Shown here one piece after another: positions 6,165 to 23,522 of a stretch of DNA of 64,000 bases (positions within the stretch are counted from its first letter, which is position 1; each line of letters starts with the position of its first letter). The translations under genes and the position numbers were made by a program. The notes under the pieces are model-generated. The model was not told the origin of the DNA. It did no database searches and saw nothing but the letters and a program-made list of their open reading frames with translations. This stretch comes from Gammaproteobacteria bacterium (GTDB taxonomy: Bacteria; Pseudomonadota; Gammaproteobacteria; JASBUN01), in NCBI GenBank assembly GCA_037385045.1, contig JARRNJ010000007.1:7717-71716 (forward strand). Direction: 5' to 3'.

Positions 6165-8696
6165 TTAAAGTTGCCCGGCACCGCGGACCGGTTGCGCCGC
6201 TGCCGACTGGACCGCGGCCGGGTCCGCGATCGGCTCGCTTTTCAGGGGCGCTGCCGATTCGGGCCCGGCGGCGCCGTTCCCATGCAACGAGGGCACGAAG
6301 TCATCCACCGCCGTTACAACGGTGCGTGCGGCGCGGGCCGCGCGCACCAATGCCGCTTCGTCGGCGCTGATCACGGAGTCCTGCAGCGCTTGTTCCAACA
6401 GATCACCGTGGTCCTGCAGGCGCCCGTCGCGCATGGCGTTGCGCAGCGTTTGTTCAACCGGTTCGGCGGCCACCACTTTCGACAGCGCATCGTCGAGCCG
6501 TGCCAGCGCTTCGCGGCCCGCCTGCGGCAGGAAGATGCCCTGCGTGAGCCGGTCACGGACCGCGCCCGGTTCCAGCAGCAGCACCGCCACTTGATGACCC
6601 AGTTGATCCGAGGGCGGGCGACAGTGCGCTCCCAATGGAAATGCGAGTGCCCGCAGCAGCCACGCCAGCCACCGGTTGGGATAGTTGCGCAGCAGCGCCG
6701 TGCAGGCGGTCTGGATCTCGTACAGTGCCTGCTGGCAGCTCCAATGTAACAGGGGCAGGTCTTCGGCCGGCGACTGCTGGTCGTGGAAACGCTTCAGGCA
6801 CGCCGAACCGATGTACAGGTTGCTGAACATATCCGCCAGGCGGCCGGACAGCTTCTCCCGGCGTTTCAGGGCACCGCCCAGCGTCAACATGGAAATGTCC
6901 GCGACCAGCGCGAACACCGCGCTCATGCGGGTCAGTTGCCGATAATAGCGCGCCGCCGGGCCGCGCACCGGGGAGCGTGCCAGGCGTGCGCCGGTCAGGC
7001 CCAGGAACAGGCTGCGTGCCAAGTTGCTGAGGGTGAAACCCATGTGCCCGAACAAGGCCCGGTCGAAGCGTTTCAGCGCCGCGTCGGGATTGGGGTCGAG
7101 CGCCGCGCTGATTTCCTCAAGCGCATACGGGTGGCAGCGCAGAGCGCCTTGGCCGAACACGATCAGGCTGCGGGTGAGGATATTGGCGCCTTCGACGGTA
7201 ATGCTGATGGGTATGGCCTGATACGCCCGGGCGAGCAGGTTGTGGGGACCCATGCAGATCCCGACGCCTCCATGCACGTCCATTGCGTCGTTGATCACGC
7301 GGCGCATGCGTTCGGTGAGGTTGTACTTGGCGATCGCCGAAACCACCGCCGGGTGCTCGCCGAGATCAACGCCGGTGGTGGTCAGGTTGCGTACCGCATC
7401 CATCTGGTAGGTATAACCGCCGATGCGTGCCAGCGCCTCCTCGACGCCCTCGAACCGGCCGATGGGGAGCTTGAACTGCTGGCGGACGCGGGCGTAGGCA
7501 CCGCTGGCGCGGGAGGCGAGTTTCCCCGCTCCGGTGCTCAACGCCGGAAGGGAAATGGAACGTCCCGCGGCCAGGCACTCCATCAACATCTGCCAGCCTT
7601 GGCCGACGCGTTCGCGCCCACCGATAACCCGGTCCATCGGGATGAACACGTCCTTGCCCCGGTTGGGTCCGTTCTGAAACGGAATGTTGAGCGGCAGATG
7701 GCGCCGGCCGATGTCGATACCCGGCGTGTCGGTGGGAATCAGCGCCAGGGTGATGCCCAGCGCGTCCCGGTCGCCGATGAGGTGCTCCGGGTCATGGAGC
7801 TTGAATGCCAGGCCGAGGACGGTGGCCACCGGCCCCAGCGTGATGTAGCGCTTGCTCCAGTTCAAGCGAATGCCCAGCACGTTCCGGCGCCCATGGACGT
7901 CCTGCCGGCAAACCACGCCGGTATCGGGAATGGCGGCGGCATCGCTGCCGGCCTCGGGTCCGGTGAGGGCGAAACAGGGAACCTCGTCGCCGCGGGCCAG
8001 CCGCGGCAGGTAATGGTCTTTCTGGGCGTCGGTGCCGTAACGCAGCAGCAGCTCCGCCGGTCCGAGCGAGTTGGGCACCATCAGCGTGACCGCCGCGGTG
8101 ACGCTGCGGCTGGCCACCTTCATCACCACGCACGAGTGCGCATGAGCCGAGAACTCCAGGCCGCCGTAGCGTCGGGGAATGATCATGCCGAAGAAGCCGC
8201 GCTCCTTGATGAAGTGCCATACCGCCGGCGGCAGGTCCTGGCGCTCGTGGGTGATGTCCCAATCGTCGAGCATGGCGCAAAGCTGTTCCACCGGGCCGTC
8301 GAGAAACGCCTGTTCGTCGCTGCGCAGCTGTGGTTGGGGGAATTGCAGCAGCATGTTCCAGGGCGGCATGCCGCGGAACAGATTGCCGTCCCACCACACG
8401 GTGCCGGCGCGCAGCGCTTCCTGTTCGGTGCGGGAAATGGCCGGCATGTGTACGCGGAACGCCTGCAGCACCGGCCGGCTCAGCCGGCGGCGCAGCGGAC
8501 GCACGGTCAGCGGAATGAATACGGCGGCGAGGAGCAGCGCGACGACGCCCTGCGCCCAGGAAAACGCCGGCGACACCACCACCCAGCCGCCCCAGGCGGC
8601 CGGCGCCAGCACCGTCCACAGCCACAAGGGGGCGCGAAAGTAGAGCAACAGCCAAGCGAACGCGGCGATGACAACGAGGGTGCTGAACGTCACCAT
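6165..8696 (-). CDS. fadE: large membrane-anchored acyl-CoA dehydrogenase, FadE-like
   Basis: About 843 aa from MVTFSTLVVIAAFAWLLLYF (N-terminal TM segments), followed by acyl-CoA dehydrogenase domains (FALTGPEAGSDA, GRSISLPA). ATG at 8696 has the RBS GAGGGAGAA upstream. Confidence 0.9.
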   Translation of the reverse strand: MVTFSTLVVIAAFAWLLLYFRAPLWLWTVLAPAAWGGWVVVSPAFSWAQGVVALLLAAVFIPLTVRPLRRRLSRPVLQAFRVHMPAISRTEQEALRAGTVWWDGNLFRGMPPWNMLLQFPQPQLRSDEQAFLDGPVEQLCAMLDDWDITHERQDLPPAVWHFIKERGFFGMIIPRRYGGLEFSAHAHSCVVMKVASRSVTAAVTLMVPNSLGPAELLLRYGTDAQKDHYLPRLARGDEVPCFALTGPEAGSDAAAIPDTGVVCRQDVHGRRNVLGIRLNWSKRYITLGPVATVLGLAFKLHDPEHLIGDRDALGITLALIPTDTPGIDIGRRHLPLNIPFQNGPNRGKDVFIPMDRVIGGRERVGQGWQMLMECLAAGRSISLPALSTGAGKLASRASGAYARVRQQFKLPIGRFEGVEEALARIGGYTYQMDAVRNLTTTGVDLGEHPAVVSAIAKYNLTERMRRVINDAMDVHGGVGICMGPHNLLARAYQAIPISITVEGANILTRSLIVFGQGALRCHPYALEEISAALDPNPDAALKRFDRALFGHMGFTLSNLARSLFLGLTGARLARSPVRGPAARYYRQLTRMSAVFALVADISMLTLGGALKRREKLSGRLADMFSNLYIGSACLKRFHDQQSPAEDLPLLHWSCQQALYEIQTACTALLRNYPNRWLAWLLRALAFPLGAHCRPPSDQLGHQVAVLLLEPGAVRDRLTQGIFLPQAGREALARLDDALSKVVAAEPVEQTLRNAMRDGRLQDHGDLLEQALQDSVISADEAALVRAARAARTVVTAVDDFVPSLHGNGAAGPESAAPLKSEPIADPAAVQSAAAQPVRGAGQL

Positions 8697-9872: not shown

Positions 9873-11012
9873 TTATGCCCGGAAGCGGAGCACTAGGTCC
9901 ACTGCCGTATCCAACTGCCGGCGCTGGATATAGAAATGGGGCGAGAAGCGGATGCCGCCGCCGCGTTGGGCGCACATGACGCCGCGCTCCTGCAGATAAG
10001 CGTACAGCACCGCGGGGTCGGCGGTGCGGTGGCGGAAGGTGACAATCCCGGCGAGGCGGGCTTCGGGGCCTTGGGTGACAGGCTGCAGCGTGTCACTGTG
10101 TTTGTGGATTTTTTCCAACAGATAAATCGAGTGTTCCCGCACTTTGCGGCTGACGGTCTCGATTCCGACCTCCTGCAGCACCGATAGGCTGGCGTGCAGC
10201 GCATGGATGCCGAGCATGTTGGGGCTGCCGCATTCGAAGCGCCGGGCCGACGTCGCCGGCTGCCACTCGTCGCGGTCGAAGTCGCCGCAATGCTCGACCA
10301 TGTGCCAGCCGAACTGGCGCAGGGTGAGGTGTTCGCGCGCTTCGGGGCGTGTGTAGAACAGCGCCACACCTTCCGGACCCATCATCCACTTGTGTCCATC
10401 GGCAACCACGAAGTCAGCAGCGGCGCTTTGGACGTCGAAGGGAACGGCGCCCAGGGATTGAATCGCGTCGACGCAAAACAGTACCCCACTGCTGCGGCAG
10501 ACGTTTCCAAGTTCCTCGAGGTTCAGGCGCAGGCCGGTCGCGTAGTGGACCGAGCTGACCGACAGCAGGCGGGTGCGCCCGTCGATGCGGGCGGCAATGG
10601 CCGCCTCGGGGGTTTCGGCGGCCGCGATGTCGACCTGGCGCACTTCCACCCCCATGGGCGCCAGCGACTCCCATACAATGCGGTTGGACGGGAATTCGTG
10701 CGCGGGGATGACGACGTTGTCCCCGCTCTTCCATTCCAGGCCATGGGCGACCACCGACAGCCCTTCCGAGGTGCTCTTCAACAGTGCGATGTCGTCCGCC
10801 GAAGGGGCGTTGATCAGCCAGCGCAGCTGCTCACGCAGCTGCGTCTCCACCGACAGCCACTTCAGATAGCCTTGCGAACCGTGCAGAAGATTGTCCTTGG
10901 CGAACGATCGCACCGCGTCCGTGGTGCACAGCGGCCACGGCGACACCGCCGCGTGGTTGAGGTAGATGAGGCCGTCCTCAAGCCGGAATTCAGAATTCCA
11001 GGAAGCGGTCAT
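9873..11012 (-). CDS. class-V aminotransferase (cysteine desulfurase / selenocysteine lyase-like)
   Basis: LNHAAVSPWP near the N-terminus and a PLP-lysine context VVADGHKWMMGPEGVALFY. ATG at 11012 (MTASWNSEF) is preferred over the Arg-rich extension to 11111. Confidence 0.8.
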   Translation of the reverse strand: MTASWNSEFRLEDGLIYLNHAAVSPWPLCTTDAVRSFAKDNLLHGSQGYLKWLSVETQLREQLRWLINAPSADDIALLKSTSEGLSVVAHGLEWKSGDNVVIPAHEFPSNRIVWESLAPMGVEVRQVDIAAAETPEAAIAARIDGRTRLLSVSSVHYATGLRLNLEELGNVCRSSGVLFCVDAIQSLGAVPFDVQSAAADFVVADGHKWMMGPEGVALFYTRPEAREHLTLRQFGWHMVEHCGDFDRDEWQPATSARRFECGSPNMLGIHALHASLSVLQEVGIETVSRKVREHSIYLLEKIHKHSDTLQPVTQGPEARLAGIVTFRHRTADPAVLYAYLQERGVMCAQRGGGIRFSPHFYIQRRQLDTAVDLVLRFRA

Positions 11013-11167
11013 TGCGGTTCCTTGATTTCTTTCCAGGCGCGCTGTGGTGCGACGCCTACGCCATGCCGCCAACGATCTTGTAGCGGCGCACGGAACTGCA
11101 GAGCGTATCAATATCCAGTGCGGTTATACACCCCGCGGCCGTGGGTGGTTTGCCGCGGCGTGCCGGA

Positions 11168-11707
11168 TCAGCGCCTCAACGCGGCCGCTACCAGTTTGTG
11201 GGCCACGTCATGATAGGTGGCGGCGAGGAGAGCGAGCGAGCGTTCGTTGCGGTAGGAGGCCGAGGAAACGACTCTCCCGTCCGAGACTGCGATGAATTGC
11301 ATCGTGGCAGTGGCGACCTTGTAGCCGGGCACACCGCGCATTTCGTCGATTACGGTCTGGCCTCCGTCCATGGGCGTGACCGATCCGACGACAACCGTGT
11401 CGGCGCCCAATTTCCTTCCCAGCTGAAGGATGCGTTTGCGGTACGCGTTGGAGGTGAAGTCGGCGTTGCCGAGCTTTTCGTGCTTCAGGAGCAGGACCAC
11501 CGTTTGCTTGGGAATTACATCGGCTCCCTGTTGCAGCAGTTCGTAATTGATGCGATCGGCGAACAATTCGCCGTGAGGTCCGGAGAAGGGCAACACGGCG
11601 ACCGTCGCCAACGACGCGGCTCTGACCGGCTGGGAAACGCGGGCGGCGTCGCGGGCGCAGCCCGCGACGAGCGCCAGCGCGAGCATAACCATCACCAGTT
11701 TGCGCAT
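11168..11707 (-). CDS. putative lipoprotein, function unknown
   Basis: MRKLVMVMLALALVAGC has signal peptide plus lipobox features. The mature part (VAVLPFSGP..) is vaguely CsgG/LpoB-like. The start was chosen at the lipoprotein signal. Confidence 0.6.
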   Translation of the reverse strand: MRKLVMVMLALALVAGCARDAARVSQPVRAASLATVAVLPFSGPHGELFADRINYELLQQGADVIPKQTVVLLLKHEKLGNADFTSNAYRKRILQLGRKLGADTVVVGSVTPMDGGQTVIDEMRGVPGYKVATATMQFIAVSDGRVVSSASYRNERSLALLAATYHDVAHKLVAAALRR

Positions 11708-11815
11708 CGCCTTGGCTCCACGACCTGAATCGGATGCAATGATAGTAGCACCACCCCGCGGGGCCGTCACCGCTCGGGAGCGTGCCGGGGAACGGGTAGT
11801 GCGGACGGCGCTGGG

Positions 11816-12550
11816 CTAGCGGATTTCGGTCTTGTAGCTGAACTTGTCGGCGCGGCCCTTGGTGGTGCGCACTTCGATGATCCGGTCGCCGGTGGTATGG
11901 GTGACGCGCTTCAATACCACCACCGGTGTGCCGGGGGCGATATTGAGCTTGGCGGCGGTTTTCCTGTCGGCCGCTTCGGCGGTGAGCGTCTCCTCCGCGC
12001 GGACCACAGGCACATTGAACTTTTCCACGATCAGGGCATAGAGCAGGTCGGGAATATGAATGTCCTCGTTCTCCAGTCCAGGCACTACGTCGGCGCGCCA
12101 GTGGCAGTATTCCACCAAAACCGGCTTCTTGCGCACGTAGCCGATGCGCTCGATGAACAGTATTTCGCTCTTGGGCGCAACGCCCAGGCGCTCACAGATG
12201 TCGGGGCTGCCGGACTCCAGCCGGCGGATCGTCGTCTCCTTGTGAATGCGCACGCCCTTGCCTTCGGCGTCGCCGTAGGAGAAGAAGCGGAACAGGCTGT
12301 TGTTGAAATCGATGCGGGATACGTAGGTACCTTTGCCCTGGTGGCGGAACAGCACCCGCTGCCAGACCAGGTTGTCAATGGCTTTCTTCACCGTTCCCTG
12401 GCTGACGCCGAGCGCCTTCGCCAACTGCGGCTCCGACGGGACCAGGTCGCCGGGGATCAGTTCGCCCGAGTCGATCAGTTCGCGAATGTGTTCCTCGACC
12501 ACCTGGTACAAGGGTTTGGTCTGGATGGGGCTGGGCGGCGGCCGAGTCAT
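11816..12550 (-). CDS. GntR-family transcriptional regulator, HutC subfamily (UTRA effector domain)
   Basis: The wHTH segment LVPSEPQLAKALGVSQGTVKKAIDNLVWQRVLFRHQGKGTYV is followed by a UTRA-like C-terminus. Divergent from the tct genes. Confidence 0.85.
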   Translation of the reverse strand: MTRPPPSPIQTKPLYQVVEEHIRELIDSGELIPGDLVPSEPQLAKALGVSQGTVKKAIDNLVWQRVLFRHQGKGTYVSRIDFNNSLFRFFSYGDAEGKGVRIHKETTIRRLESGSPDICERLGVAPKSEILFIERIGYVRKKPVLVEYCHWRADVVPGLENEDIHIPDLLYALIVEKFNVPVVRAEETLTAEAADRKTAAKLNIAPGTPVVVLKRVTHTTGDRIIEVRTTKGRADKFSYKTEIR

Positions 12551-12775
12551 CGCAAATCTCCGTCTGGGGGCGCGGTGCTTCCGCTGGCCGCCGTGCGGCC
12601 GCTTCGATTCAAGACTGAGGGGGGATACCGATCGGGGGCGAGCGCCGTGACCGCGGGCGCACCTTGCGCGCGCCTCTGCCCGTGACCGAGTAATTTTCCT
12701 GAATCAATGGCTTCCATGCGTTGCTATTGTATCCACATGGCGAGTGTCGCTACAGCATCCCCCACACAGTGTAAC

Positions 12776-12858
12776 TTGACAAGCCTCGATGAGCCTGTTT
12801 AATTCAGCAAGGGACAGAAATAACTCATATAGATCAGTTGTCCTTACTATAGCACAAC
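12776..12858 (+). promoter_or_regulatory. candidate sigma-70 promoter plus imperfect dyad (possible GntR operator) upstream of tctA
   Basis: TTGACA (12776-12781), a 17-nt spacer, then TTAATT (12799-12804). Dyad GTTGTCCT-TACTAT-AGCACAAC at 12837-12858 matches 7 of 8 arm positions. Located in an AT-rich 384-bp divergent intergenic region. Confidence 0.3.
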
Positions 12859-12934
12859 AATCATAAGCGCCACGCTACCGTTTCCTGCGCATACTCAAAC
12901 CAACGGGGCAAGTGGCAAGAGGAGTCGATCGCCG

Positions 12935-14455
12935 ATGGAGTTCCTGCATTATCTGCCGGATGCCTTGTCCGGCTGGAATCTGTTGATCCTGTGCCTGGGC
13001 ACGGTGGGAGGGCTGGTGCTGGGGGCGACGCCCGGACTGAGTCCCACCATGGCGGTCGCACTGCTGATTCCGTTCACGTTCCAGATGCCGGCGGATTCCG
13101 GATTGATTTTGCTCGGGTCCGTATACACGGCCACGGTCGCCGGGGGTGCGGTCAGCGCCATTCTGGTCAACATTCCCGGCGCCCCGGCCAACATCGCCAC
13201 GGTGCTGGACGGCCACCCGATGGCCAAGTCCGGCCGCGCCACAGAGGCGTTGCACTACTGTTTCATCAGTTCGCTCATCGGCGGAATCCTGGGCGTACTG
13301 GTGTTGATCTTCTTCACGCCCGTGCTGGCGAACTTTGCGTTGAGTTTCGGGCCCTCGGAGTTGTTCTGGATCGCGATCCTCGGGGTGACCGTGATCGGGT
13401 CGCTGGGTTCGAAGTCGGTGCTGAAGGGGCTGTTTGCCGGCGCGGTGGGCTTATGGCTCTCGACCATCGGCTATGACCCGGTCTTGGGTGAACAGCGGTT
13501 CGTGTTCACCTCCGCCTTGACGGGTGGCATCAATATCATTGCCGCGCTGATCGGCCTGTTCGCCATTCCCCAGGTGCTGGGCATGTTGGAGGATGCGGCC
13601 GGCGGCAAAAGCGGTGTGATGTACGATATGGAAAAGCGCAGCGTCTTTACCTCACTGCGCTACAACGTCCGTCGCCTGCGCGCCCTGACAGTGGGCAGCA
13701 TCACCGGCATTATCGTCGGCCTGATACCGGGCGCCGGGGGACAGATCGCGGGATTGATCTCTTACGACCAGGCGAAAAAATTCAGCCGCGATCCCAGCCG
13801 CTTCGGCACCGGCGAGCCGGACGGGGTGATCGCCGCCGAATCGGCCAACAACGCCATGGTCGGTCCGTCCCTGGTGCCGTTGCTGACCTTGAGTGTTCCC
13901 GGCAGCCCGACCGCGGCGGTGCTGCTGGGCGGGCTGCTGATTCACGGGTTGTTTCCCGGGCCCAACCTTTTCACCACGCACGCCAAAGTGACCTGGACCT
14001 TCATCGATTCCCTGTTGCTGGGCCAGATCCTGATGGCGGTGTTCGGGCTGTGGATCAGCCGCTACAGCCGCTTCGTGACGCGTATTCCCAACAATTTCAT
14101 GGCCGCGGCGGTGACCGTCCTGGCGGTGTTCGGGACCTACAGTGTCCAGAACAACTTCGACGACGTGATGGTCATGATGACCCTGGGCACGGCGATGTAT
14201 TTTGCCATGAAGCTGGGTTTCAGCCCGGCGCCGGTGGTGCTGGGTATCATTCTGGGTCCGATCGCCGAAACCAACTTTGCCCAGGGGCGCCTGATCGCGG
14301 ACAGCGGCGCAGGGATGATGCCCTATTTCTTCACCGGCACCATGAACATCATCCTCATAGCGCTGTGCGTGGCCTCGGTCGGCTACAGTATCTATGTGGA
14401 GATACGATCGATCAGGCGGCGCAAGAAAGGAGCATCCCAATGGCAAGGCGCTTGA
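12935..14455 (+). CDS. tctA: tripartite tricarboxylate transporter large permease TctA
   Basis: 506-aa polytopic membrane protein with typical TctA segments (PGLSPTMAVALLIPFTF, GGAVSAILVNIPGAPAN, LTLSVPGSPTAAVLLGGL). Confidence 0.9.
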   Translation: MEFLHYLPDALSGWNLLILCLGTVGGLVLGATPGLSPTMAVALLIPFTFQMPADSGLILLGSVYTATVAGGAVSAILVNIPGAPANIATVLDGHPMAKSGRATEALHYCFISSLIGGILGVLVLIFFTPVLANFALSFGPSELFWIAILGVTVIGSLGSKSVLKGLFAGAVGLWLSTIGYDPVLGEQRFVFTSALTGGINIIAALIGLFAIPQVLGMLEDAAGGKSGVMYDMEKRSVFTSLRYNVRRLRALTVGSITGIIVGLIPGAGGQIAGLISYDQAKKFSRDPSRFGTGEPDGVIAAESANNAMVGPSLVPLLTLSVPGSPTAAVLLGGLLIHGLFPGPNLFTTHAKVTWTFIDSLLLGQILMAVFGLWISRYSRFVTRIPNNFMAAAVTVLAVFGTYSVQNNFDDVMVMMTLGTAMYFAMKLGFSPAPVVLGIILGPIAETNFAQGRLIADSGAGMMPYFFTGTMNIILIALCVASVGYSIYVEIRSIRRRKKGASQWQGA

Positions 14456-14883
14456 CCGCAATCGGCGCGATCGCGCTCAGCATATTCCTGTACTGGGCGG
14501 CGGCGTCGGCTGAAGACCAGGCCGCCTACCTGTTCCCCAAGGTGATCGCCGCCTCGATGCTGGTGTTGGCGGTTGCGATTCTGATCCGTGAGTGGGCGCC
14601 GCGGGTTGGTGCCGATGCCGCGGCCGTGGTGTCGGTGCCGTGGGTCCGACTGTGGCCCATATTCGCGATTTTCGTGCTGTACCTGTTGGCGGCGCAGCAG
14701 TTGGGATTCTACGCTACGTCATTGCTGGCGTTTATTGCCATCGGCGTGGTCTACTCGCCGTCGGAGAGCAGCTTCGGCGACATCAAGCGTTGCGTGCCCA
14801 TATCTTTGGTTTTTCTTGCCGTGTTGTATCTGGTGTTCGTTGTACTGTTGCAGGTCCAGACCCCTCGCGGGCTGTTGTTCTGA
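14440..14883 (+). CDS. tctB: tripartite tricarboxylate transporter small permease TctB
   Basis: 147-aa four-TM protein MARRLTAIGAIALSIFLYW... ATG at 14440 follows AAAGGAG and overlaps the tctA stop by 16 nt. Confidence 0.7.
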   Translation: MARRLTAIGAIALSIFLYWAAASAEDQAAYLFPKVIAASMLVLAVAILIREWAPRVGADAAAVVSVPWVRLWPIFAIFVLYLLAAQQLGFYATSLLAFIAIGVVYSPSESSFGDIKRCVPISLVFLAVLYLVFVVLLQVQTPRGLLF

Positions 14884-14971
14884 GCCGGACGACGAACTGA
14901 TTTTGCCAGGGAAGCGAAGGACGTCATGGACGTGTTACACAAACGCCACAAGGCGGAGGAGGAGAGAGAAA

Positions 14972-15958
14972 ATGAAAAATAACGTATTTCGGTTCCTGAA
15001 ACGGTTCGCGTTCGTCCTGGCGGCGGGTGCGTCGCTGATGATGTCGGCCGGGGCCCATGCCGGGAATTATCCGGACCGGCCTTTGAGTCTAATGGTGGCT
15101 TACTCGCCCGGCGGTGCAACCGACTTCCAGGCGCGCATCGTCACCATGATGGCGGCCAAATACCTGGGTGAACCGATCGTCATCATCAACAAGCCCGGCG
15201 CCGGCGGCCAGGTCGGGTGGAATTGGTTCGCCAGCCAGGCCAAGCACAACGGCTATGAGCTGGGCGCTTACAACCTGCCGCATGTTATTTCCCAGTCGAT
15301 CGTCTTCGACACCAAGTACAACATCCACAACCTGGAGCCGATCGCCAACTGGGGTGCCGACCCTGCCGTGTTGATCGTGAACAAGAGCAGTCCGTTCAAC
15401 AACGTCAAGGAGTTCGTTGCCTACGCCAAGAAGCATCCGGGCAAGATCACCGTGTCGGGCGCCGGCCTGTTCGTGGGCCATCATATCGCCACGCTGCAGC
15501 TGGAGCGGGCGGCGGGCATCAAGCTCACCTATGTGCCCACCAAGGGCGGTGTGCCGGCCATGCAATACGTGATCGGCGGCAAAGTGATGGCCGGCTTCAA
15601 CAACCTGTCGGATGCCTACCGCAACCGCGACCGGCTCAAGATCCTGGCGGTTGCCGATACCCATCGCAACAAGGAGTTTCTGCCGAATGTGCCCACCTTC
15701 GAGGAAGAGGGCATCAACGTGGACAATTCCAGTGTCAACTTCCGCGGCATCATGGTGCCGAAGGGTACGCCGAAATCGGTGATCGACTATCTGGCGAAGA
15801 AGGTGCCGGAGATGTTCCACGACAAGAAGGTGCTGGCGAAGATGAAGGCCGGCGGCTCGCCGGTGCGGATCATGGACCGCCAGGAAGTGCTGAAGATGTG
15901 GCAACACCGCCAGGCCTACCTGACCAAGCTGCTGGCGAAGCTGCGCAAGAAGAAATAG
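14972..15958 (+). CDS. tctC: Bug/TctC-family periplasmic substrate-binding protein
   Basis: Signal peptide MKNNVFRFLKRFAFVLAAGASLMMSAGAHA, then NYPDRPLSLMVAYSPGGATDFQARI, the hallmark of the Bug family. RBS GGAGGAGGAGAG lies upstream. Confidence 0.85.
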   Translation: MKNNVFRFLKRFAFVLAAGASLMMSAGAHAGNYPDRPLSLMVAYSPGGATDFQARIVTMMAAKYLGEPIVIINKPGAGGQVGWNWFASQAKHNGYELGAYNLPHVISQSIVFDTKYNIHNLEPIANWGADPAVLIVNKSSPFNNVKEFVAYAKKHPGKITVSGAGLFVGHHIATLQLERAAGIKLTYVPTKGGVPAMQYVIGGKVMAGFNNLSDAYRNRDRLKILAVADTHRNKEFLPNVPTFEEEGINVDNSSVNFRGIMVPKGTPKSVIDYLAKKVPEMFHDKKVLAKMKAGGSPVRIMDRQEVLKMWQHRQAYLTKLLAKLRKKK

Positions 15959-15972
15959 TCCCTGCGGGGTGC

Positions 15973-16006
15973 CGGATGGCCGGGTTCGTTGCAGCCCGGC
16001 CATCCG
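15973..16006 (+). terminator. 12-bp perfect GC-rich hairpin after tctC (possible terminator, no U-tract)
   Basis: cggatggccggg (15973-15984) pairs with cccggccatccg (15995-16006) across a 10-nt loop. No T-run follows. Confidence 0.45.
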
Positions 16007-16113
16007 CTGTCAGCGGGGTTCAATTGAACATTCCGCCAGGGTATGGTACATCTTCACACATATACATGAGTTAGACGGGTGGCGGCGTCGCCATCCGTGC
16101 AGAGGCCGATACC

Positions 16114-17562
16114 ATGAAACAGGAAAGCCAGGGTGCCGCCCGCGCCGCCGATGCCGCATCGGTCGTGCGCAGCCTGGTTGAGCGGGCCCGCCGTGCACAG
16201 CGCCTTTATGAGTCGTTTTCCCAGGAGCGCGTGGACGAAGTGGTGACCGCGGTAGCCTGGGGGCTGATCAATCCGGACCACAACCGGATGTTGGCCGAAC
16301 TGGCCGTCCGTGAGACCGGACTCGGCAACGTCGAGGACAAGGTCACAAAGAATCAGCGCAAGACTTTTGGTCTGTTGCGCGATCTCAGCCGTGCGCGCTC
16401 GGTGGGCGTTATCAATGAGGATCCCGACAAGGGCTTGGTGGAAATCGCGCGGCCGGTCGGGGTCGTGGGGGCAGTGGTGCCGTCGACCAATCCGGTGGCC
16501 ACGCCGTTCAACAAGTCGCTCAATGCGCTCAAGGGGCGCAACGCCATCATTCTGTCGCCGTCGCCCAAGGGACAGGTGGTGTGCGAGCGCCTGGTGGGGA
16601 TTATCCGGGAAGAGCTGCGGCGCGTCGGCGCGCCGGAGGACCTGGTGCAACATCTGCCGGCGCCGGGATCCAAGGAAGCCACCTACGAGCTGATGCGCCA
16701 AGTGGACCTGGTGGTGGCCACCGGCTCGCAGAACAACGTGCGCGCGGCCTACTCCAGCGGCACGCCGGCGATCGGCGTCGGCGCCGGCAACGTACCGGTG
16801 ATCATTGACACGGATGCCGATCTGCAGCTGGCTGCAGCCAATATTGCCGCGTCCAAGACCTTCGACAACGCTACCAGCTGTTCCTCGGAGAACAGCCTGA
16901 CAATCGTCGATTCGGTGTACGACGACATGATCGAAGCGCTGTCCGCGCAAGGTGGCTGGCTGCTCGACCGCCAGGCCAGGCAACGTCTGCAACAGGTGAT
17001 GTGGCAAGACGGCCATCTCAATCGCAAAGTCATCGCCAAGTCGGCGGCCGAGATCTGTCAGGTTGCGGGCCTGCGGCCGCCCGGTTCGTCGCCGCCGCGG
17101 TTTCTGATGGTGGAAGAGAGCGGGGTGGGCGCCGATTTTCCGTTTTCCGATGAAAAGTTGAGCCCCGTGTTGACCGTTTATCGTGCCGGTGATTTCGCTG
17201 CCGCGTTCGACCTGGTCAGACGCATCCTCGAGTTCAAAGGCGCCGGGCATTCGGTGGGAGTCTACAGCCACAACGACAATCACATCATGCGCCTCGGGCT
17301 GGAGATGCCGGTGTGCCGGGTGATCGTCAATCAGGCCCACTGCTTCGCCACCGGCGGCAGTTTCGACAACGGGCTGCCGTTCTCCCTGTCCATGGGCTGC
17401 GGCACCTGGGGCGGCAACAGCATTTCCGACAACATGAACTACCGCCATTACCTCAACATCACGCGCATCTCCCGGACTATCCGCCACGACGAGCCGACTC
17501 AGGAGGAGTTGTTCGGCGCGTTCTGGAGTAAGTACGGGATTACGCCGCCGGGCGGGCACTGA
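16114..17562 (+). CDS. CoA-acylating aldehyde dehydrogenase (SucD/EutE/PduP clade); candidate sulfoacetaldehyde dehydrogenase (SauS-like)
   Basis: 482 aa with VPSTNPVATPFNKSLNALKGRNAIILSPSPKG and a catalytic Cys context FDNATSCSSENS. The function is inferred from adjacency to the CoA ligase and Xsc. Confidence 0.7.
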   Translation: MKQESQGAARAADAASVVRSLVERARRAQRLYESFSQERVDEVVTAVAWGLINPDHNRMLAELAVRETGLGNVEDKVTKNQRKTFGLLRDLSRARSVGVINEDPDKGLVEIARPVGVVGAVVPSTNPVATPFNKSLNALKGRNAIILSPSPKGQVVCERLVGIIREELRRVGAPEDLVQHLPAPGSKEATYELMRQVDLVVATGSQNNVRAAYSSGTPAIGVGAGNVPVIIDTDADLQLAAANIAASKTFDNATSCSSENSLTIVDSVYDDMIEALSAQGGWLLDRQARQRLQQVMWQDGHLNRKVIAKSAAEICQVAGLRPPGSSPPRFLMVEESGVGADFPFSDEKLSPVLTVYRAGDFAAAFDLVRRILEFKGAGHSVGVYSHNDNHIMRLGLEMPVCRVIVNQAHCFATGGSFDNGLPFSLSMGCGTWGGNSISDNMNYRHYLNITRISRTIRHDEPTQEELFGAFWSKYGITPPGGH

Positions 17563-17573
17563 CAGAGGGCGTT

Positions 17574-19154
17574 ATGGAAACGATTCGCAATCTGATTGAT
17601 ACATGGGCCGAAGCGGCGCCGGAGCAGGTTTTTCTGGTGGCGCCGGAAACCGGCAAGGAACTGACCGCGGGCGAGCTGCAAGAGCTGGTGCGGTTCGTCG
17701 CCGCCCGGCTGGCCGATCTGGGGTTGGAGAAGGGCGACAAGGCGGCTTTTTTGATGGACAACGGCTTGTGGACCACAGTGCTGTTCCTGGGCGCCATGTA
17801 TGCGGGGCGGGTCATCGTGCCCCTCAATGCCGTGGCCGGACCCGACCAGCTGGCCTACGTGCTGGAACATTCCGATAGCAAGGTCGTGTTCGTCAACGAG
17901 CAGTATGCCGAGAAATTCGCGCCGATCATCGATGGCGCCGCGGAGCAGGTACGGATGATCGCGGCCGACGAAGATGCCGGGCCGAATTGGCCGCAAATGA
18001 CCAACCCGACACCGGGAGACCCGTTGCCGGCGCTGGCCGCCGAGGACGAGGCGTTGATGATTTACACCTCCGGCACCACGGGGCGGCCGAAAGGCGTGCT
18101 GCTTAGCCACGCCAATGCCATTGCCGGTGGCGCCAACACCGCACGTGCCCACGACCTGACCGCGCAGGATCGTGCGCTGTGTGTGCTGCCGCTCTATCAC
18201 ATCAACGGTGAAATGGTTACTGTAATGGCCCCGCTGGTGAGTCACGGCAGTGTGGTGATGCCCCATCGGTTCAGTACGCCGCAATTCTGGGAGCTGATCA
18301 GCCGCTTTCGATGCACCTGGTTCAGCGTGGTCCCGACCATCATCGCGTATTTGTTAGAGCAGGCGGAACGCGACGGCACACCAACCGCACAGGGATTGAA
18401 CCTTCAGCAGCTGCGGTTCGGGCGGTCGGCGTCGGCGCCGCTGTCACCGGATATGCATCAAGCCTTCGAGCGGCAGTTCAACGTGCCGGTGATCGAAACC
18501 ATGGGATTGAGCGAGACGGCGGCCCAGATTCTTTCCAACCCCATGCCGCCTGCTGCGCCCAAGTATGGTTCGCCCGGCATTGCGTATGGCAACGAGGCCA
18601 AGATCGTCGATGCCGACGGCCGCGTGCTGACCGACGGCGAATCGGGTGAGCTGATGATCCGCGGCCCGAACGTGATGAAGGGCTATTACAAGAACCCGGA
18701 GGCCACGGCTAAGGCGCTGGAGCCCGACGGCTGGCTGCATACCGGCGACTTGGCGTTTCGCGACGCTGACGGCTATTACTTCATCACCGGGAGACTGAAG
18801 GAAATCATCATCAAGGGTGGGGAGAACATCGCCCCGCGGGAAATCGATGAAGTGCTGTACCAACACCCGGCGGTGCTGGAAGCGGCCGCGTTTCCCGTGC
18901 CGGACAAGCGTTACGGCCAGGAAATCATGGCCGGCGTCGTGCTCAAGCCAGAAGCTCAGTGCGACGAGGGAGAGCTGGAGACGTTTTGCGAGGGGAAGTT
19001 GGGCGGTTATAAGTGCCCAAGAAAGATCTGGCTCCTGGACACTCTGCCCAAGGGACCTTCGGGCAAGATCCAGCGTCTCAAACTGGCCGAGCTGGTGGAG
19101 CAACCGGCGAATGCCACCGCCGATAACCAACATCAAACTGCATCGTCGAATTAG
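17574..19154 (+). CDS. AMP-dependent acyl-CoA ligase; candidate sulfoacetate-CoA ligase (SauT-like)
   Basis: AMP-binding motifs IYTSGTTGRPKGVLLSH, GLSET, GWLHTGDLAF, GRLKEIIIKGGENI, GKIQR. Lies 12 nt after the aldehyde dehydrogenase gene. Confidence 0.65.
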   Translation: METIRNLIDTWAEAAPEQVFLVAPETGKELTAGELQELVRFVAARLADLGLEKGDKAAFLMDNGLWTTVLFLGAMYAGRVIVPLNAVAGPDQLAYVLEHSDSKVVFVNEQYAEKFAPIIDGAAEQVRMIAADEDAGPNWPQMTNPTPGDPLPALAAEDEALMIYTSGTTGRPKGVLLSHANAIAGGANTARAHDLTAQDRALCVLPLYHINGEMVTVMAPLVSHGSVVMPHRFSTPQFWELISRFRCTWFSVVPTIIAYLLEQAERDGTPTAQGLNLQQLRFGRSASAPLSPDMHQAFERQFNVPVIETMGLSETAAQILSNPMPPAAPKYGSPGIAYGNEAKIVDADGRVLTDGESGELMIRGPNVMKGYYKNPEATAKALEPDGWLHTGDLAFRDADGYYFITGRLKEIIIKGGENIAPREIDEVLYQHPAVLEAAAFPVPDKRYGQEIMAGVVLKPEAQCDEGELETFCEGKLGGYKCPRKIWLLDTLPKGPSGKIQRLKLAELVEQPANATADNQHQTASSN

Positions 19155-19166
19155 GAGGACAGCATA

Positions 19167-20912
19167 ATGGCTCGCATGACCCCAAGCGAAGCGTTCGTGG
19201 AGACCCTGGTGGCCCAGGGCGTCAAGGACGTCTTCGGCATCGTCGGCTCCGCGTATATGGATGCGCTGGACCTGTTTCCGGCGGCGGGAATCCGCTTCAT
19301 TCCCACGGTCCACGAGCAAGGTTCGGCGCATATGGCGGACGGCTATTCCCGGGTCAGCGGCAAACAGGGGGTGTGCATCGGCCAGAACGGTCCTGGCATC
19401 ACCAATTTTGTCACCGCCATTGCCGCGGCCTACTGGGCCCATTCGCCAGTGGTGGCCATCACCCCGGAGACCGGCACCATGGGTGTGGGGTTGGGCGGTT
19501 TTCAGGAGGCCGATCAGCTGTCGATCTTCCAGTCCATCACCAAGTATCAGGCCCACGTCAACAACCCGGCGCGGATGGCCGAGATGACGGCCCGGGCCTT
19601 CGACCGGGCGCTGTCCGAGCGGGGCCCGACACAGCTGAATATTCCCCGGGATTACTTTTACGGTGAAATGGACACGGACATTCCCACGCCGGTGCGCATC
19701 GAGGCGCCCATCGGCGGCGCCAAGAGCCTGGAGGAGGCCGCCGACCTGCTGGCCGGTGCCAAATTCCCGGTGATCATGGCCGGCGGCGGCGTCATCAGCG
19801 CCGGCGGCGTCGAGGAAACCAAGCAATTGGCCGAGCGGCTTTCGGCGCCGGTGGTGACCAGCTACCTGCACAACGACGCCTTCCCGGCCAATCATCCGCT
19901 GTGGTGCGGCCCGTTGGGCTATCAGGGCTCCAAGGCCGGCATGAACCTGATCGCCAAAGCCGACGTGGTGCTGGCGCTGGGCACCCGCCTGGGCCCGTTC
20001 GGCACTCTGCCGCAATACGGCATGGACTACTGGCCCAAGTCGGCCAAGATCATCCAGGTGGACGTGGACTACCGCATGGTGGGCCTGGTCAAGTCGGTGG
20101 CCGTTGGCATCTGCGGCGACGCCCGGGGTGTGGCCGTGGCCTTGAGCGAACGCCTCCAGCAGCGCGATCTCGCCTGCCAGCAGAACCGCGAGGAGCGCGA
20201 GAAGGAGATCAAGCGCCAGCAGCAGGCGTGGGAAACCGAGCTCAACGACTGGACCCAGGAGACCGACGAATGGAGCCGTGAAGTCGCGGGCGAGGGTGGC
20301 CGCATGCATCCACGCCAGATGCTGCGGGCGATGGAGCGTGCCATGCCGGAGGACGCCATGGTGTCCACCGACATCGGCAACATCTGCTCGGTGTCCAACA
20401 GCTACCTGCGCTTCAACCGTCCCAACAGCATGTTCGCGGCCATGAGCTTCGGCAACTGCGGCTACGCCTTCCCCACCATCATCGGCGCCAAGGTGGCGGC
20501 GCCCGAGCGCCCGGCGGTGGCGTATGTGGGCGACGGCGCCTGGGCCATGAGCATGGTCGAGATCCTGACCTGCGTGCGCGAGAACATTCCGGTCACCGCG
20601 GTGGTGTTCAATAACCGCCAGTGGGGCGCCGAGAAGAAGAACCAGGTCGATTTCTACTCCCAGCGCTTTTTGGGCAGCAACCTGGAGAACCCGAGCTTCG
20701 CCGGCATTGCCCAGTCCATGGGCGCCCAGGGAGTGACCATCGAGCGCGTCGAGGAGGTGGGTCCGGCGCTGGCCAAGGCCTGCGAGGACCAGAAGCAGGG
20801 CAAGACCACCATCCTGGAAATGCTTGTCACCCGTGAGCTGGGCGAGCCGTTCCGCCGTGACGCGTTGAAGAAGCCGGTGCGCTTGCTTGACAAGTACAAG
20901 GACTTTGTCTGA
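19167..20912 (+). CDS. xsc: sulfoacetaldehyde acetyltransferase (ThDP-dependent)
   Basis: 581 aa. ThDP-enzyme N-terminus (GSAHMADGYSRVSG, GQNGPGITNF), ThDP motif GDGAW..NN, and segments I recall as Xsc-typical (HNDAFPANHPLWCGPLGYQGSKAGM, GTRLGPFGTLPQYGMDYWPK, ELGEPFRRDALKKPV). Confidence 0.8.
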   Translation: MARMTPSEAFVETLVAQGVKDVFGIVGSAYMDALDLFPAAGIRFIPTVHEQGSAHMADGYSRVSGKQGVCIGQNGPGITNFVTAIAAAYWAHSPVVAITPETGTMGVGLGGFQEADQLSIFQSITKYQAHVNNPARMAEMTARAFDRALSERGPTQLNIPRDYFYGEMDTDIPTPVRIEAPIGGAKSLEEAADLLAGAKFPVIMAGGGVISAGGVEETKQLAERLSAPVVTSYLHNDAFPANHPLWCGPLGYQGSKAGMNLIAKADVVLALGTRLGPFGTLPQYGMDYWPKSAKIIQVDVDYRMVGLVKSVAVGICGDARGVAVALSERLQQRDLACQQNREEREKEIKRQQQAWETELNDWTQETDEWSREVAGEGGRMHPRQMLRAMERAMPEDAMVSTDIGNICSVSNSYLRFNRPNSMFAAMSFGNCGYAFPTIIGAKVAAPERPAVAYVGDGAWAMSMVEILTCVRENIPVTAVVFNNRQWGAEKKNQVDFYSQRFLGSNLENPSFAGIAQSMGAQGVTIERVEEVGPALAKACEDQKQGKTTILEMLVTRELGEPFRRDALKKPVRLLDKYKDFV

Positions 20913-20959
20913 GATCGCGGCAACGCGGCGCTCGGCCAACCGCAACGACGGGTAGGAGC

Positions 20960-21400
20960 ATGTTCAATACCATCTTGGTTGCACTGGACGGATCGGATCA
21001 CGCTCGCCATGCGCTGAAGGTGGCGGTCGGACTGGCCGAGCGCTGCGGCGCGAAGCTGCTGCTGTGCCATGCCATCGAACCGCATCCGCTGCGTTCCGAC
21101 CTGAGCCGGATCGCCAGCGAAGCGGCCGAGGAAATGTACGAGCGCATCGGCGGTGAGGTGGCCGAACGTGTTCTCGGCGACGCCGAACAGGCGGCGCGCG
21201 AGGCCGGTATCGCCGAGATTGGCCGCGTGGTTCAGGAGGGCAGCGCGGCGCCGGCGATCGTCGCCGCCGCGGATCACGAGGGAGCCGACCTGATCGTGGT
21301 CGGCACCCGCGGGCTGACCGGACTGCACGAACTGGCCCTGGGCAGCGTCGCTCACAACGTCACTGCCATGGCCCATTGTCCGGTGGTGGTGGTGAAGTGA
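20960..21400 (+). CDS. universal stress protein (UspA family)
   Basis: 146 aa: MFNTILVALDGSDHA..., GADLIVVGTRGLTGLHELALGSVAHNV, HCPVVVVK. Confidence 0.85.
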   Translation: MFNTILVALDGSDHARHALKVAVGLAERCGAKLLLCHAIEPHPLRSDLSRIASEAAEEMYERIGGEVAERVLGDAEQAAREAGIAEIGRVVQEGSAAPAIVAAADHEGADLIVVGTRGLTGLHELALGSVAHNVTAMAHCPVVVVK

Positions 21401-21439
21401 CACCGCGCCGGATACCGGGCACCGGCGCCGGGGGTGCCG

Positions 21440-22639
21440 ATGGCTGACGGGTTGCTGGTCCTCAACGCCGGGTCATCGAGCATCAAGTTCGCCATGTACA
21501 GGCTCGGCGAGCCGGGCACCGATCCGCAGTTGCACCTGCGCGGCAACCTGTCCGGTATCGAAGAACAGCCGCACTTGTTCGCGGCTGACGCCTCCGGACG
21601 GCAGCTGGAGGAGGGCGTGCTGCCGGGGAGCGCGGTGCAAAACCACCAGGATGCACTCGATCATCTTCTCGATTGGCTGGATCGGCAGGCGCATGAAGTG
21701 CACTTGGTTGGCGTCGGGCATCGGGTGCTGCATGGCGGACGCGACTACACCCGGCCGGTAAGAATTACCCCGGATCTGTTGCAGCAGCTGGATCGCTTCT
21801 GCCCACTGGGGCCGGACAACCAGCCCCACAACCTTGCCGGGATCCGTGCCATGGAAGCGGTGGCACCGGACCTGCCCCAAGTGGCGTGTTTTGACACGGC
21901 GTTTCACGCCCGTCAGCCGCCGGTCGCGCGCCTGATGCCGCTGCCGGGCGAATACGCTGACCGCGGCTTCGTCCGTTATGGGTTCCACGGCCTGTCATAT
22001 GACTACATCACCAGCGTACTGCCGTCGTACAACGACGGGCATTTTCCCCAACGGCTGATCATCGCCCACCTGGGCAGCGGCGCCAGCGCCGCCGCTATCA
22101 AGGACGGTGTCGGCATCGCAACGACCATGGGGCTTACCGCCCTGGACGGCCTCATGATGGGCACCCGGTCGGGTTCCCTGGACCCGGGCGCGCTGCTGTA
22201 TCTGATGGAGGAGGACGGACTGGGCGCGCAGGAGCTCAGCGACCTGCTGTACAAGCGCTCCGGTCTGTTGGGCGTTTCCGGCATCAGCGCGGACATGCGG
22301 GTGCTGCTGGACAGTTCCGAACCAGGCGCGCGGCGGGCCGTGGATCTGTTTAGTTATCGTGTTGTGCGCGCGGTCGGTTCGCTGGTCGCCGCACTGCAGG
22401 GCCTCGACGGACTGGTATTCACCGGCGGGATCGGCGAGCACGCCGCCACCATCCGGGCCGGGGTCTGCCACCAGTTGCGTTGGCTGGGGCTGGATCTGGA
22501 CGAGAACGCCAACGACCGCCACGGTCCGGTGATTACGCAGGCCACCAGTGCCGTCAAGGGTTGGGTGATCCCCACCAATGAAGAGCTGGTGATCGCGCGC
22601 CATACCATGGAAGTGTTGGCGCGGGAATCCGCCGGGTAA
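21440..22639 (+). CDS. ackA: acetate kinase
   Basis: LVLNAGSSSIKFAMY, VGHRVLHGG, YGFHGLSY, AHLGSGASAAAI, FTGGIGEH. ATG at 21440; an alternative GTG lies at 21434. Confidence 0.9.
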   Translation: MADGLLVLNAGSSSIKFAMYRLGEPGTDPQLHLRGNLSGIEEQPHLFAADASGRQLEEGVLPGSAVQNHQDALDHLLDWLDRQAHEVHLVGVGHRVLHGGRDYTRPVRITPDLLQQLDRFCPLGPDNQPHNLAGIRAMEAVAPDLPQVACFDTAFHARQPPVARLMPLPGEYADRGFVRYGFHGLSYDYITSVLPSYNDGHFPQRLIIAHLGSGASAAAIKDGVGIATTMGLTALDGLMMGTRSGSLDPGALLYLMEEDGLGAQELSDLLYKRSGLLGVSGISADMRVLLDSSEPGARRAVDLFSYRVVRAVGSLVAALQGLDGLVFTGGIGEHAATIRAGVCHQLRWLGLDLDENANDRHGPVITQATSAVKGWVIPTNEELVIARHTMEVLARESAG

Positions 22640-22730
22640 GGGCGCGCTCAAGGGCGCGCGCATAACATCAAAGCCGAGGCCGGCGGCGTTGTAGCACCGA
22701 TCCCCTCCCATCTCCTGTTTGTGAGGACCG

Positions 22731-23522
22731 ATGAACGCTGTAGTTTCCGAGGTCGGCGCGGCCCTGAGCGGGATCGCGCCCCATGTGCTGGTCGGTGTGA
22801 TACTGGTGCTGGCGCTTGCGGGCCTGATCAAGGGCACCCTGGGTTTCGGGTTGCCGTTGGTGGCGATATCGCTGCTCTCGAACGTCGTGGAGATCCACCT
22901 GGCGTTGGCGTTGGTGACGCTGCCGATCGTGCTCAGCAACCTTTGGCTGGGCCTGCAGGGCGGCGACTTTCCCGGAACGCTGCGCAAGTACTGGATGGTG
23001 GTGCTGGCGGTCGGTGTCGGCATTTTCGCCGGTTCGCGGGTGCTGGTGGGCATCGACAAAAACCTGCTGATGTTCCTCCTGGGCACGGTGATCATCGTTT
23101 TCGCCCTGGCGGAGCAATTCAAGTCGGGCGCCGGGCTGGTGATCCCCCCGCATGCGGAAAGGGGGTGGGGCATCGCCGCGGGCCTCGTGGCCGGACTGAT
23201 GGGCGGCCTGTCCACCGCCTACGGCCCGCCGCTGATCATGTACCTGACCGCGTTGCGGCTGCCGAAGGAGGTCTACATCGGCACCCTGGGCGTGATCTGG
23301 TTCTTTGCGTCGATCTTCCTGGTGGCGGCGTTCTCCAGCGTCAAGATCCTCACGCCGTATACGGCAGTCCTTTCGGGGCTTTCGGTGTTTCCCGTGTTCG
23401 TCGGCATGGCGCTGGGCAAACGGCTGCGCGCGCGCATCGACCAGCACCTGTTTCAGCGTCTGACCCTGATCGCACTGGTGATTCTGGCCCTGAACCTGCT
23501 GCGCCGCGGCTTGTGGGGCTGA
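22731..23522 (+). CDS. TauE/SafE-family anion (sulfite) exporter
   Basis: 263-aa protein with about 7-8 TM segments and the characteristic N-terminus LIKGTLGFGLPLVAISLL plus the repeated half GLMGGLSTAYGPPLIMYL. Confidence 0.8.
   Translation: MNAVVSEVGAALSGIAPHVLVGVILVLALAGLIKGTLGFGLPLVAISLLSNVVEIHLALALVTLPIVLSNLWLGLQGGDFPGTLRKYWMVVLAVGVGIFAGSRVLVGIDKNLLMFLLGTVIIVFALAEQFKSGAGLVIPPHAERGWGIAAGLVAGLMGGLSTAYGPPLIMYLTALRLPKEVYIGTLGVIWFFASIFLVAAFSSVKILTPYTAVLSGLSVFPVFVGMALGKRLRARIDQHLFQRLTLIALVILALNLLRRGLWG

Follow-up and report, generated by a model that had tools for sequence, protein, structure and literature searches.

Several bacterial systems for the uptake and conversion of sulfoacetate and related sulfonates have been described. 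Cupriavidus necator H16 carries sauRSTU, and its xsc and pta lie at other sites (Weinitschke et al. 2010, summarised in PMC10413351). The pathway of Bilophila wadsworthia consists of SauXYZ-SauCD-SauS-TauF-IseG, and its TctC-family protein SauZ binds sulfoacetate with a dissociation constant of 0.13 µM and binds neither isethionate nor 3-sulfopropanoate (PMC10413351). Close homologues of SauZ in alpha-, gamma- and deltaproteobacteria are encoded next to SauS, SauT or SauCD, often together with Xsc (PMC10413351), and the arrangement of sauST with a tripartite tricarboxylate transporter (TTT) was called the hybrid type in a 2025 study of Arctic sponge symbionts (PMC12625764). Clusters that join a TTT importer to SauS, SauT and Xsc are thus an already published type, reported in 2023 (Liu et al., J Biol Chem, PMC10413351) and in 2025 (PMC12625764). 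A TTT importer of sulfolactate, SlcHFG, is known from Roseovarius nubinhibens and Chromohalobacter salexigens, with tctA placed before tctB (PMC5812351). Here, we describe a 64,000-nucleotide stretch of DNA (hereafter the window; positions 7,717 to 71,716 of contig JARRNJ010000007.1, assembly GCA_037385045.1) from an uncultured gammaproteobacterium. The gene content of its positions 11816-23522 suggests that this segment is very probably an inducible sulfoacetate dissimilation operon.

Gene content and core enzymes

Ten intact open reading frames (ORFs) make up the cluster. An initial annotation of the window had listed the same genes in the same order, and both the list and the order were borne out, with positions at or near those it had assigned. 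A GntR/HutC regulator on the minus strand is followed on the plus strand by TctA, TctB, TctC, SauS, an AMP-forming ligase, Xsc, a universal stress protein (Usp), AckA and TauE. The nine plus-strand genes are co-directional, with intergenic distances of -16 to 155 nucleotides (nt), and the enzyme genes are spaced by 11-47 nt. The gaps between sauS and sauT (11 nt) and between sauT and xsc (12 nt) argue for co-translation. The first 16 nt of tctB, whose start was placed with its ribosome-binding site, are also the last 16 nt of tctA. The real start of tctC is at 14972, with the ribosome-binding site GGAGGAGG ahead of it and a signal peptide behind it, and the start at 14588 of the mechanically called ORF (14588-15958) was rejected as an over-extension. 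The features are as follows.

11816-12550, minus strand: GntR/HutC-subfamily regulator with winged helix-turn-helix and UTRA effector domains (PF00392, 64 bits; PF07702, 103 bits)
12776-12803, plus strand: candidate sigma-70 promoter of tctA, predicted from sequence (-35 TTGACA at 12776-12781, 16-nt spacer, -10 TTTAAT at 12798-12803)
12824-12837, unstranded: 14-bp palindrome CTCATATAGATCAG, predicted GntR operator, 98 nt upstream of the tctA start
12935-14455, plus strand: TctA-family large membrane subunit of the TTT importer (PF01970, 442 bits)
14440-14883, plus strand: TctB-family small membrane subunit (PF07331, 54 bits), inside ORF 14050-14883
14972-15958, plus strand: TctC-family periplasmic binding protein with signal peptide (PF03401, 129 bits)
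16057-16070, unstranded: second palindrome copy CACATATACATGAG (other strand CTCATGTATATGTG), located 44 nt before sauS and predicted to be a second operator and an internal promoter region
16114-17562, plus strand: SauS, acylating sulfoacetaldehyde dehydrogenase (NF047625 equivalog, 773 bits)
17574-19154, plus strand: SauT-type AMP-forming sulfoacetate-CoA ligase (PF00501 and PF13193; 46% identity to Caballeronia SauT)
19167-20912, plus strand: Xsc, sulfoacetaldehyde acetyltransferase, a thiamine diphosphate (ThDP) enzyme (TIGR03457, 959 bits)
20960-21400, plus strand: universal stress protein of the ATP-binding class (PF00582, 114 bits; motif GTRG-x9-GS)
21434-22639, plus strand: acetate kinase AckA (PF00871, 342 bits; TIGR00016, 337 bits, cut-off 293)
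22731-23522, plus strand: TauE/SafE-family permease, putative sulfite exporter (PF01925, 79 bits, cut-off 33)

The functional reading is carried first by the dehydrogenase and the ThDP enzyme. The product of 16114-17562 exceeded the 600-bit cut-off of the SauS equivalog model NF047625 by 173 bits, and all other NCBIfam families stayed below their own cut-offs, including the second-ranked family, AdhE (422 bits). It is 57% identical to the SauS of a Caballeronia cluster with the layout IclR-SauS-SauT-MFS (major facilitator superfamily transporter), a protein that itself scores 800 bits on NF047625. Meanwhile, the window Xsc lies far above the 676-bit cut-off of TIGR03457, and the best non-Xsc family reached 359 bits, with no acetolactate synthase model above that value. 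In the tree, this enzyme falls inside a clade formed by the Xsc proteins of related loci and plasmid xsc genes annotated by the Prokaryotic Genome Annotation Pipeline, and the five ThDP paralogues of its own genome stand apart (support 100). The initial annotation had named a placement of the ThDP enzyme outside the Xsc clade as a ground for refutation, and the tree goes the other way. Xsc is single-copy, as no second match was found in the genome (3.48 Mb, 86% complete, 5.5% contamination). The sulfoacetate-type Sau/Xsc route proposed by the initial annotation is thereby supported at the level of sequence, both by these two enzymes and by the ligase described below.

The Xsc proteins of related loci form two subclades, 65-86% versus 45-49% identical to the window Xsc (L010:12162-13943 and 16 other loci; L numbers designate loci). 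The L010 Xsc, a member of the distant subclade, scores 886 bits on TIGR03457 and is also above the cut-off of 676. The subclade of the window includes the annotated xsc of a Rhodococcus plasmid.

For the ligase, we used as a proxy the plasmid cluster of Caballeronia sp. NK8, composed of IclR, SauS, an AMP-binding protein and an MFS transporter. The window ligase is 46% identical over its full length to this Caballeronia SauT, whose top match in the genome of the window is this same ligase (434 bits; runner-up, 202 bits). In a tree of 65 sequences, the ligases adjacent to SauS, that of 17574-19154 among them, were all recovered in one clade (SH-aLRT 100), apart from the seven other AMP-binding paralogues of the genome. 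This clade draws on TTT-type clusters and on MFS-type clusters of Caballeronia, Paraburkholderia and Paracoccus, and the two types are interleaved. These results support the classification of the ligase as SauT-type, in one clade with the ligases of IclR-SauS-SauT-MFS clusters. Both the window ligase and the Caballeronia ligase match only the generic subfamily PRK06187 of NCBIfam, below its cut-off.

The ligase and the acylating dehydrogenase might instead serve a small dicarboxylate without a sulfonate group, through oxalate, malonate or succinate semialdehyde chemistry, and lie beside xsc by chance. Comparison with the Protein Data Bank (PDB) gives this idea some basis: the closest solved structures to the ligase are oxalate-CoA ligases, and the closest to the dehydrogenase is an acylating succinate-semialdehyde dehydrogenase, while the malonyl-CoA synthase model matches the ligase at 296 bits. 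Nevertheless, we consider it highly improbable, given the margin of the dehydrogenase over the SauS cut-off with every other family below its own, the linkage of the ligase-SauS pair to Xsc, TTT or MFS transporters across many phyla, and the narrow sauS/sauT/xsc gaps. The PDB holds distant relatives only, with no structure of Xsc, SauS, SauT or SauZ, and the oxalate-activating enzymes found closest to the ligase fit a small dianionic substrate.

A sulfoacetate substrate also has to be weighed against other C2 and C3 sulfonates that converge on sulfoacetaldehyde, namely 3-sulfolactate (as with SlcHFG), isethionate or taurine. Xsc is common to the routes for all three, and the TTT systems with tctA before tctB, the order of the window, include the sulfolactate importer SlcHFG (PMC5812351). 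However, the feeder enzymes of these routes are missing from the cluster, where Pfam and NCBIfam profile searches found no sulfolactate dehydrogenase, taurine aminotransferase or dehydrogenase, or isethionate dehydrogenase. Searched as a whole, the genome yielded neither sulfopyruvate decarboxylase nor any taurine binding protein over the cut-off, which leaves SauST as the sole recognised feeder of Xsc. Furthermore, a SauS above its equivalog cut-off next to a ligase of the SauT clade makes sense only for the reduction of a carboxylate to an aldehyde, and SauZ does not bind isethionate or 3-sulfopropanoate (PMC10413351). Thus, we regard it as very unlikely that the operon acts on one of these other sulfonates.

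Importer, proposed pathway and fate of the products

The importer is consistent with the same substrate. The window TctC shares 61% identity with its counterpart in a TctABC-SauS-SauT plasmid cluster of Ruegeria, 61-62% with Roseobacteraceae TctCs from TctABC-SauS-SauT clusters, and 70% with those of Desulfarculaceae, and TctA is 61-88% identical across related clusters. The TctC identities are consistent with the alpha-, gamma- and deltaproteobacterial SauZ family (UniRef50_Q165A0, which includes B. wadsworthia SauZ), to which the window protein may belong. Based on these similarities, the window TctC is probably a sulfoacetate-binding SauZ homologue, and TctA is one of the two membrane subunits named SauXY in the nomenclature of Liu et al. 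A look-up in the ESM Atlas returned only clusters labelled 'TctC'. The initial annotation had also pointed out that a TTT system takes the place of the MFS importer; this is true of the cluster, which carries TctABC and no SauU match (the Caballeronia SauU had no match in the genome at 1e-10), but it is not novel (PMC10413351, PMC12625764).

Clusters of the sulfoacetate type have drawn their TctC from three or more unrelated lineages. The TctC of an Azospirillum plasmid (L013) is 28% identical to that of the window, and that of a Sulfitobacter plasmid (L099) gave no match to it at 1e-80. The sulfoacetate clusters of these two genera were set aside as evidence on the window TctC, their TctC lineages being unrelated.

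Based on these findings, we postulate the following pathway. TctABC would import sulfoacetate, with TctC capturing it in the periplasm as a high-affinity, SauZ-type binding protein. The AMP-forming SauT would convert sulfoacetate into sulfoacetyl-CoA, which SauS would reduce with NAD(P)H to sulfoacetaldehyde. Xsc would then mediate the phosphorolytic cleavage of the C-S bond, yielding acetyl phosphate and sulfite. From acetyl phosphate and ADP, AckA would form acetate and ATP, winning back one ATP equivalent of the two that the SauT step costs, and sulfite would exit the cytoplasm through TauE.

The direction of flux is one that we infer. SauS could conceivably run in reverse, oxidising sulfoacetaldehyde to sulfoacetyl-CoA with release of sulfoacetate, as in the sulfoquinovose and taurine branches, and homologues of SauS and of an ADP-forming ligase do run towards sulfoacetate in a variant of the sulfo-transketolase pathway (PMC10413351). 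The window, however, encodes an AMP-forming ligase, an enzyme type that in effect works only towards activation. Transport by a TTT system that depends on a binding protein is inward, the Xsc of the same operon consumes sulfoacetaldehyde, and SauS is the only source of sulfoacetaldehyde found. We therefore consider reversal extremely unlikely.

The genome offers routes for both products. The initial annotation had placed AckA in the position of Pta, and this holds inside the cluster; nonetheless, a short stand-alone Pta is encoded on another contig (C4), beside a fumarase and a two-component system rather than in a sulfonate context. A PTA-domain fusion protein and Acs are also present. Two more AckA paralogues (C92:3230-4405 and C100:3720-4895) are each about 42% identical to the AckA of the cluster. 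With Pta, the PTA-domain fusion, the extra AckA copies and Acs in the genome, acetyl phosphate can go either to ATP and acetate or to acetyl-CoA. As for sulfite, three proteins of the sulfite oxidase family are encoded, and the alpha subunit of adenosine 5'-phosphosulfate (APS) reductase, AprA, gave three matches above the TIGR02061 cut-off (C31:16845-18665, C132:2029-3726 and C98:6351-7979) as well as a fragment on C86. Together with Acs, these enzymes provide routes for sulfite and acetate. At this level of contamination, the multiple AprA matches may reflect a mixture of strains in the bin, or else the presence of several APS reductases. No RuBisCO was found in the genome at its 86% completeness.

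AckA follows Xsc in L009, L016, L017, L038 and L047, a minority of loci. When only loci with full flanks are counted, Xsc is followed by Pta in four, by AckA in three and by neither in 12, and the shorter loci, together with L009, add further cases of each. The last gene of the cluster encodes a TauE that is 63% identical to the protein in the same position of L009 and 49% identical to that of L028, and its putative role is that of a sulfite exporter.

The Usp displays the nucleotide-binding motif G-x2-G-x9-G-S/T (GTRGLTGLHELALGS). Its matches among solved structures are a Thermus Usp and, as second best, TeaD (E 5e-16, full length). In Halomonas elongata, the operon of TeaABC, a tripartite ATP-independent periplasmic (TRAP) transporter for ectoine, also contains the gene for TeaD, a Usp that binds ATP (PDB 3hgm). 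The Usp occurs in 10 of the 48 full-flank loci, and GntR is present in all ten of these. Its position varies, following SauT or Xsc, or lying between GntR and TctA in Oceanospirillaceae. The Usp is thus a conserved accessory, and by its likeness to TeaD it is a reasonable guess, and no more, that it may tune transporter activity. One could go further and regard the GntR-Usp-AckA-TauE form in this family, whose genomes encode APS reductase and enzymes of the sulfite oxidase family with no RuBisCO detected, as a distinct energetic and regulatory variant, in which sulfoacetate serves mainly as a source of sulfite (as electron donor) and of ATP made by AckA, acetate is a by-product, and the Usp gates the TTT system by energy status in the manner of TeaD. 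We consider this proposal speculative and rather unlikely; if true, it would be the first Usp-regulated TTT system.

Several points weigh against reading the cluster as a sulfoacetate dissimilation operon. The case concerns an uncultured organism and is built on sequence. The link of the ligase to C. necator SauT runs through the Caballeronia proxy, and that of TctC to B. wadsworthia SauZ likewise through proxies. The outgroup of the ligase tree consisted of own-genome paralogues only. NCBIfam offers no model specific to SauT, and what the ligase matches best there is a generic subfamily of ligases, at a score under the cut-off. Since a Pta is encoded elsewhere in the genome, acetyl phosphate need not pass via AckA. 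Finally, TauE-family proteins are generic anion permeases.

Regulator and predicted operator

The initial annotation had described the divergent regulator as HutC-type GntR, in agreement with its two Pfam domains and its placement on the minus strand, and no named equivalog of NCBIfam (HutC, PhnF or others) reached its cut-off for this protein. In 25 related loci, orthologues with 61-78% identity are likewise encoded divergently at this place. The conservation of this arrangement suggests that GntR is probably the repressor of the cluster.

The candidate operator was derived from k-mers common to 17 orthologous gntR-tctA spacers, and is a 14-bp palindrome with the consensus sTCATnTAnATsAs. The pattern STCATNTANATSAS gave five strand-wise matches, at three places, in the 64-kb window, where 0.43 would be expected. 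Its copy at 12824-12837 lies just 3' of the plausible promoter TTGACA-16-TTTAAT. In support of this promoter, TTGACAAGC is common to four related intergenic regions. A consensus scan for promoters and terminators returned fewer sites than in shuffled sequences, none of them useful, and it did not call the tctA promoter because position 2 of the -10 element is not A. A generic inverted-repeat search of the gntR-tctA spacer also found nothing.

Among 83 related loci examined, the motif was found upstream of tctA in all 25 that carry GntR, mostly 55-160 nt from the gene and often duplicated at a spacing of about 74 nt. A further site upstream of sauS, as in the window, is present in six loci (L009, L027, L031, L049, L051 and L066). 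The 58 loci not scored as carrying GntR displayed only stray matches with one mismatch, a single one of them upstream of tctA, in L085, a locus that carries a weak GntR match. This co-occurrence is good comparative evidence that the palindrome is likely the GntR operator, with two regulated promoters, upstream of tctA and of sauS. In the mechanism that we infer, GntR would repress both promoters by binding the palindrome, and a metabolite of the pathway would act as inducer and relieve the repression.

Distribution and comparison with known systems

Scanning species genomes with the window TctC retrieved at least 546 relatives, of which the best 80, all 61-78% identical, were surveyed. These best 80 span Gammaproteobacteria, Alphaproteobacteria (including SAR11) and Thermodesulfobacteriota; Bilophila is absent from them. 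TctABC-SauS-SauT forms their common core. In the subset of 48 loci whose 10-kb flanks are complete, we detected SauS in 42, SauT in 34, Xsc in 19, GntR in 13, Pta in 12, Usp in 10, AckA in three and TauE in one.

The full set of ten genes, in the same order, was found in L009 (genome G001), which belongs to another genus of the same family. This repetition of the order within the family indicates that the cluster is not a chance juxtaposition. Nine of the ten genes (GntR, TctABC, SauS, SauT, Xsc, Usp and AckA) are also in order in L016 and L017, of the same family, and TauE is present only in L009; these three loci were equated with family genomes by their coordinates. SauS is above the cut-off in every species genome of the family (five, counting that of the window) and in one of 36 sampled genomes from other families of the class. 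The cluster had been called an island in the initial annotation, a status that is not demonstrated: its GC content (0.60-0.63) is only slightly lower than that of the flanks (0.64-0.68), SauS is family-wide, and the flanking genes, which differ between family genomes, are not shared. Judged by these genomes, the cluster looks like a family trait that has been moved around within genomes.

Other lineages displayed different gene content. In SAR11, complete Pelagibacter genomes (L039, L041-L043) and further loci (L025, L026, L059, L062 and L063) carry TctA-TctC-SauS-SauT, with a TctC 66-68% identical to that of the window and no GntR, Usp or Xsc within 10 kb. This suggests that SAR11 takes up and activates sulfoacetate, and that the C-S cleavage step is encoded elsewhere or is absent. 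Seven deltaproteobacterial loci (L034, L036, L061, L069, L073, L077 and L078) display the order SauT-TctA-TctB-TctC, with SauS undetected within 10 kb at the thresholds used. In L068 and L085, a SauT-like ligase directly follows TctC and there is no separate SauS match, which could reflect a fusion or a replacement.

Downstream of gntR and on its strand (window 9873-11770) lie a class-V aminotransferase (9873-11111, minus strand) and a 200-amino acid lipoprotein-like ORF with no Pfam match (11168-11770, minus strand). Both were excluded as members of the system, as they are conserved beside none of the related clusters.

Sulfoacetate is a product of the turnover of sulfoquinovose and taurine, and knowing its consumers helps to close the organosulfur cycle. 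The window contributes a clearly resolved case from a gammaproteobacterial family that is uncultured and leaves knowledge of the pathway unchanged. Its additions are limited to the pairing of GntR with the palindrome, which is testable, and to the linkage of GntR with Usp.

With sauRSTU of C. necator H16 the cluster shares the chemistry, that is, activation by the SauT ligase, reduction by SauS and cleavage by Xsc. It differs in having a GntR/HutC regulator instead of IclR, TctABC instead of the MFS importer SauU, and an Xsc encoded in the operon and followed by AckA instead of Pta. A SauR-like match to the Caballeronia query sits on another contig of the genome. The Bilophila system resembles the window in its TTT importer, whose binding protein binds sulfoacetate in Bilophila (SauZ) and would do so in the window, and in a SauS that reduces sulfoacetyl-CoA. 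In contrast, it makes use of the ADP-forming SauCD and converts sulfoacetaldehyde into isethionate for a glycyl-radical enzyme, without Xsc, whereas the window encodes SauT and Xsc.

SlcHFG is, like TctABC of the window, an organosulfonate TTT system with tctB downstream of tctA and a pathway ending at Xsc. The companions of SlcHFG are sulfolactate dehydrogenases and a sulfopyruvate decarboxylase, whereas those of the window are SauS and SauT. TeaABC-TeaD provides a parallel of another kind, namely a small Usp with an ATP motif whose gene shares an operon with a secondary transporter that relies on a binding protein, although that transporter is of the TRAP type rather than TTT and its substrate, ectoine, is different.

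The closest relatives are the hybrid sauST and TTT clusters, in which TctABC likewise adjoins SauS and an AMP-forming SauT, with Xsc nearby (PMC10413351; PMC12625764). The order TctA-TctB-TctC-SauS-SauT is the same in the window, in the Ruegeria plasmid cluster and in most of the best 80 loci. The differences lie in the accessory genes: GntR is mentioned in neither paper, and Usp and TauE are unmentioned in PMC10413351, whereas the window has all three together with AckA. Among the loci surveyed, the full GntR-Usp-AckA-TauE set is particular to the genome of the window and to one other genus of the same family.

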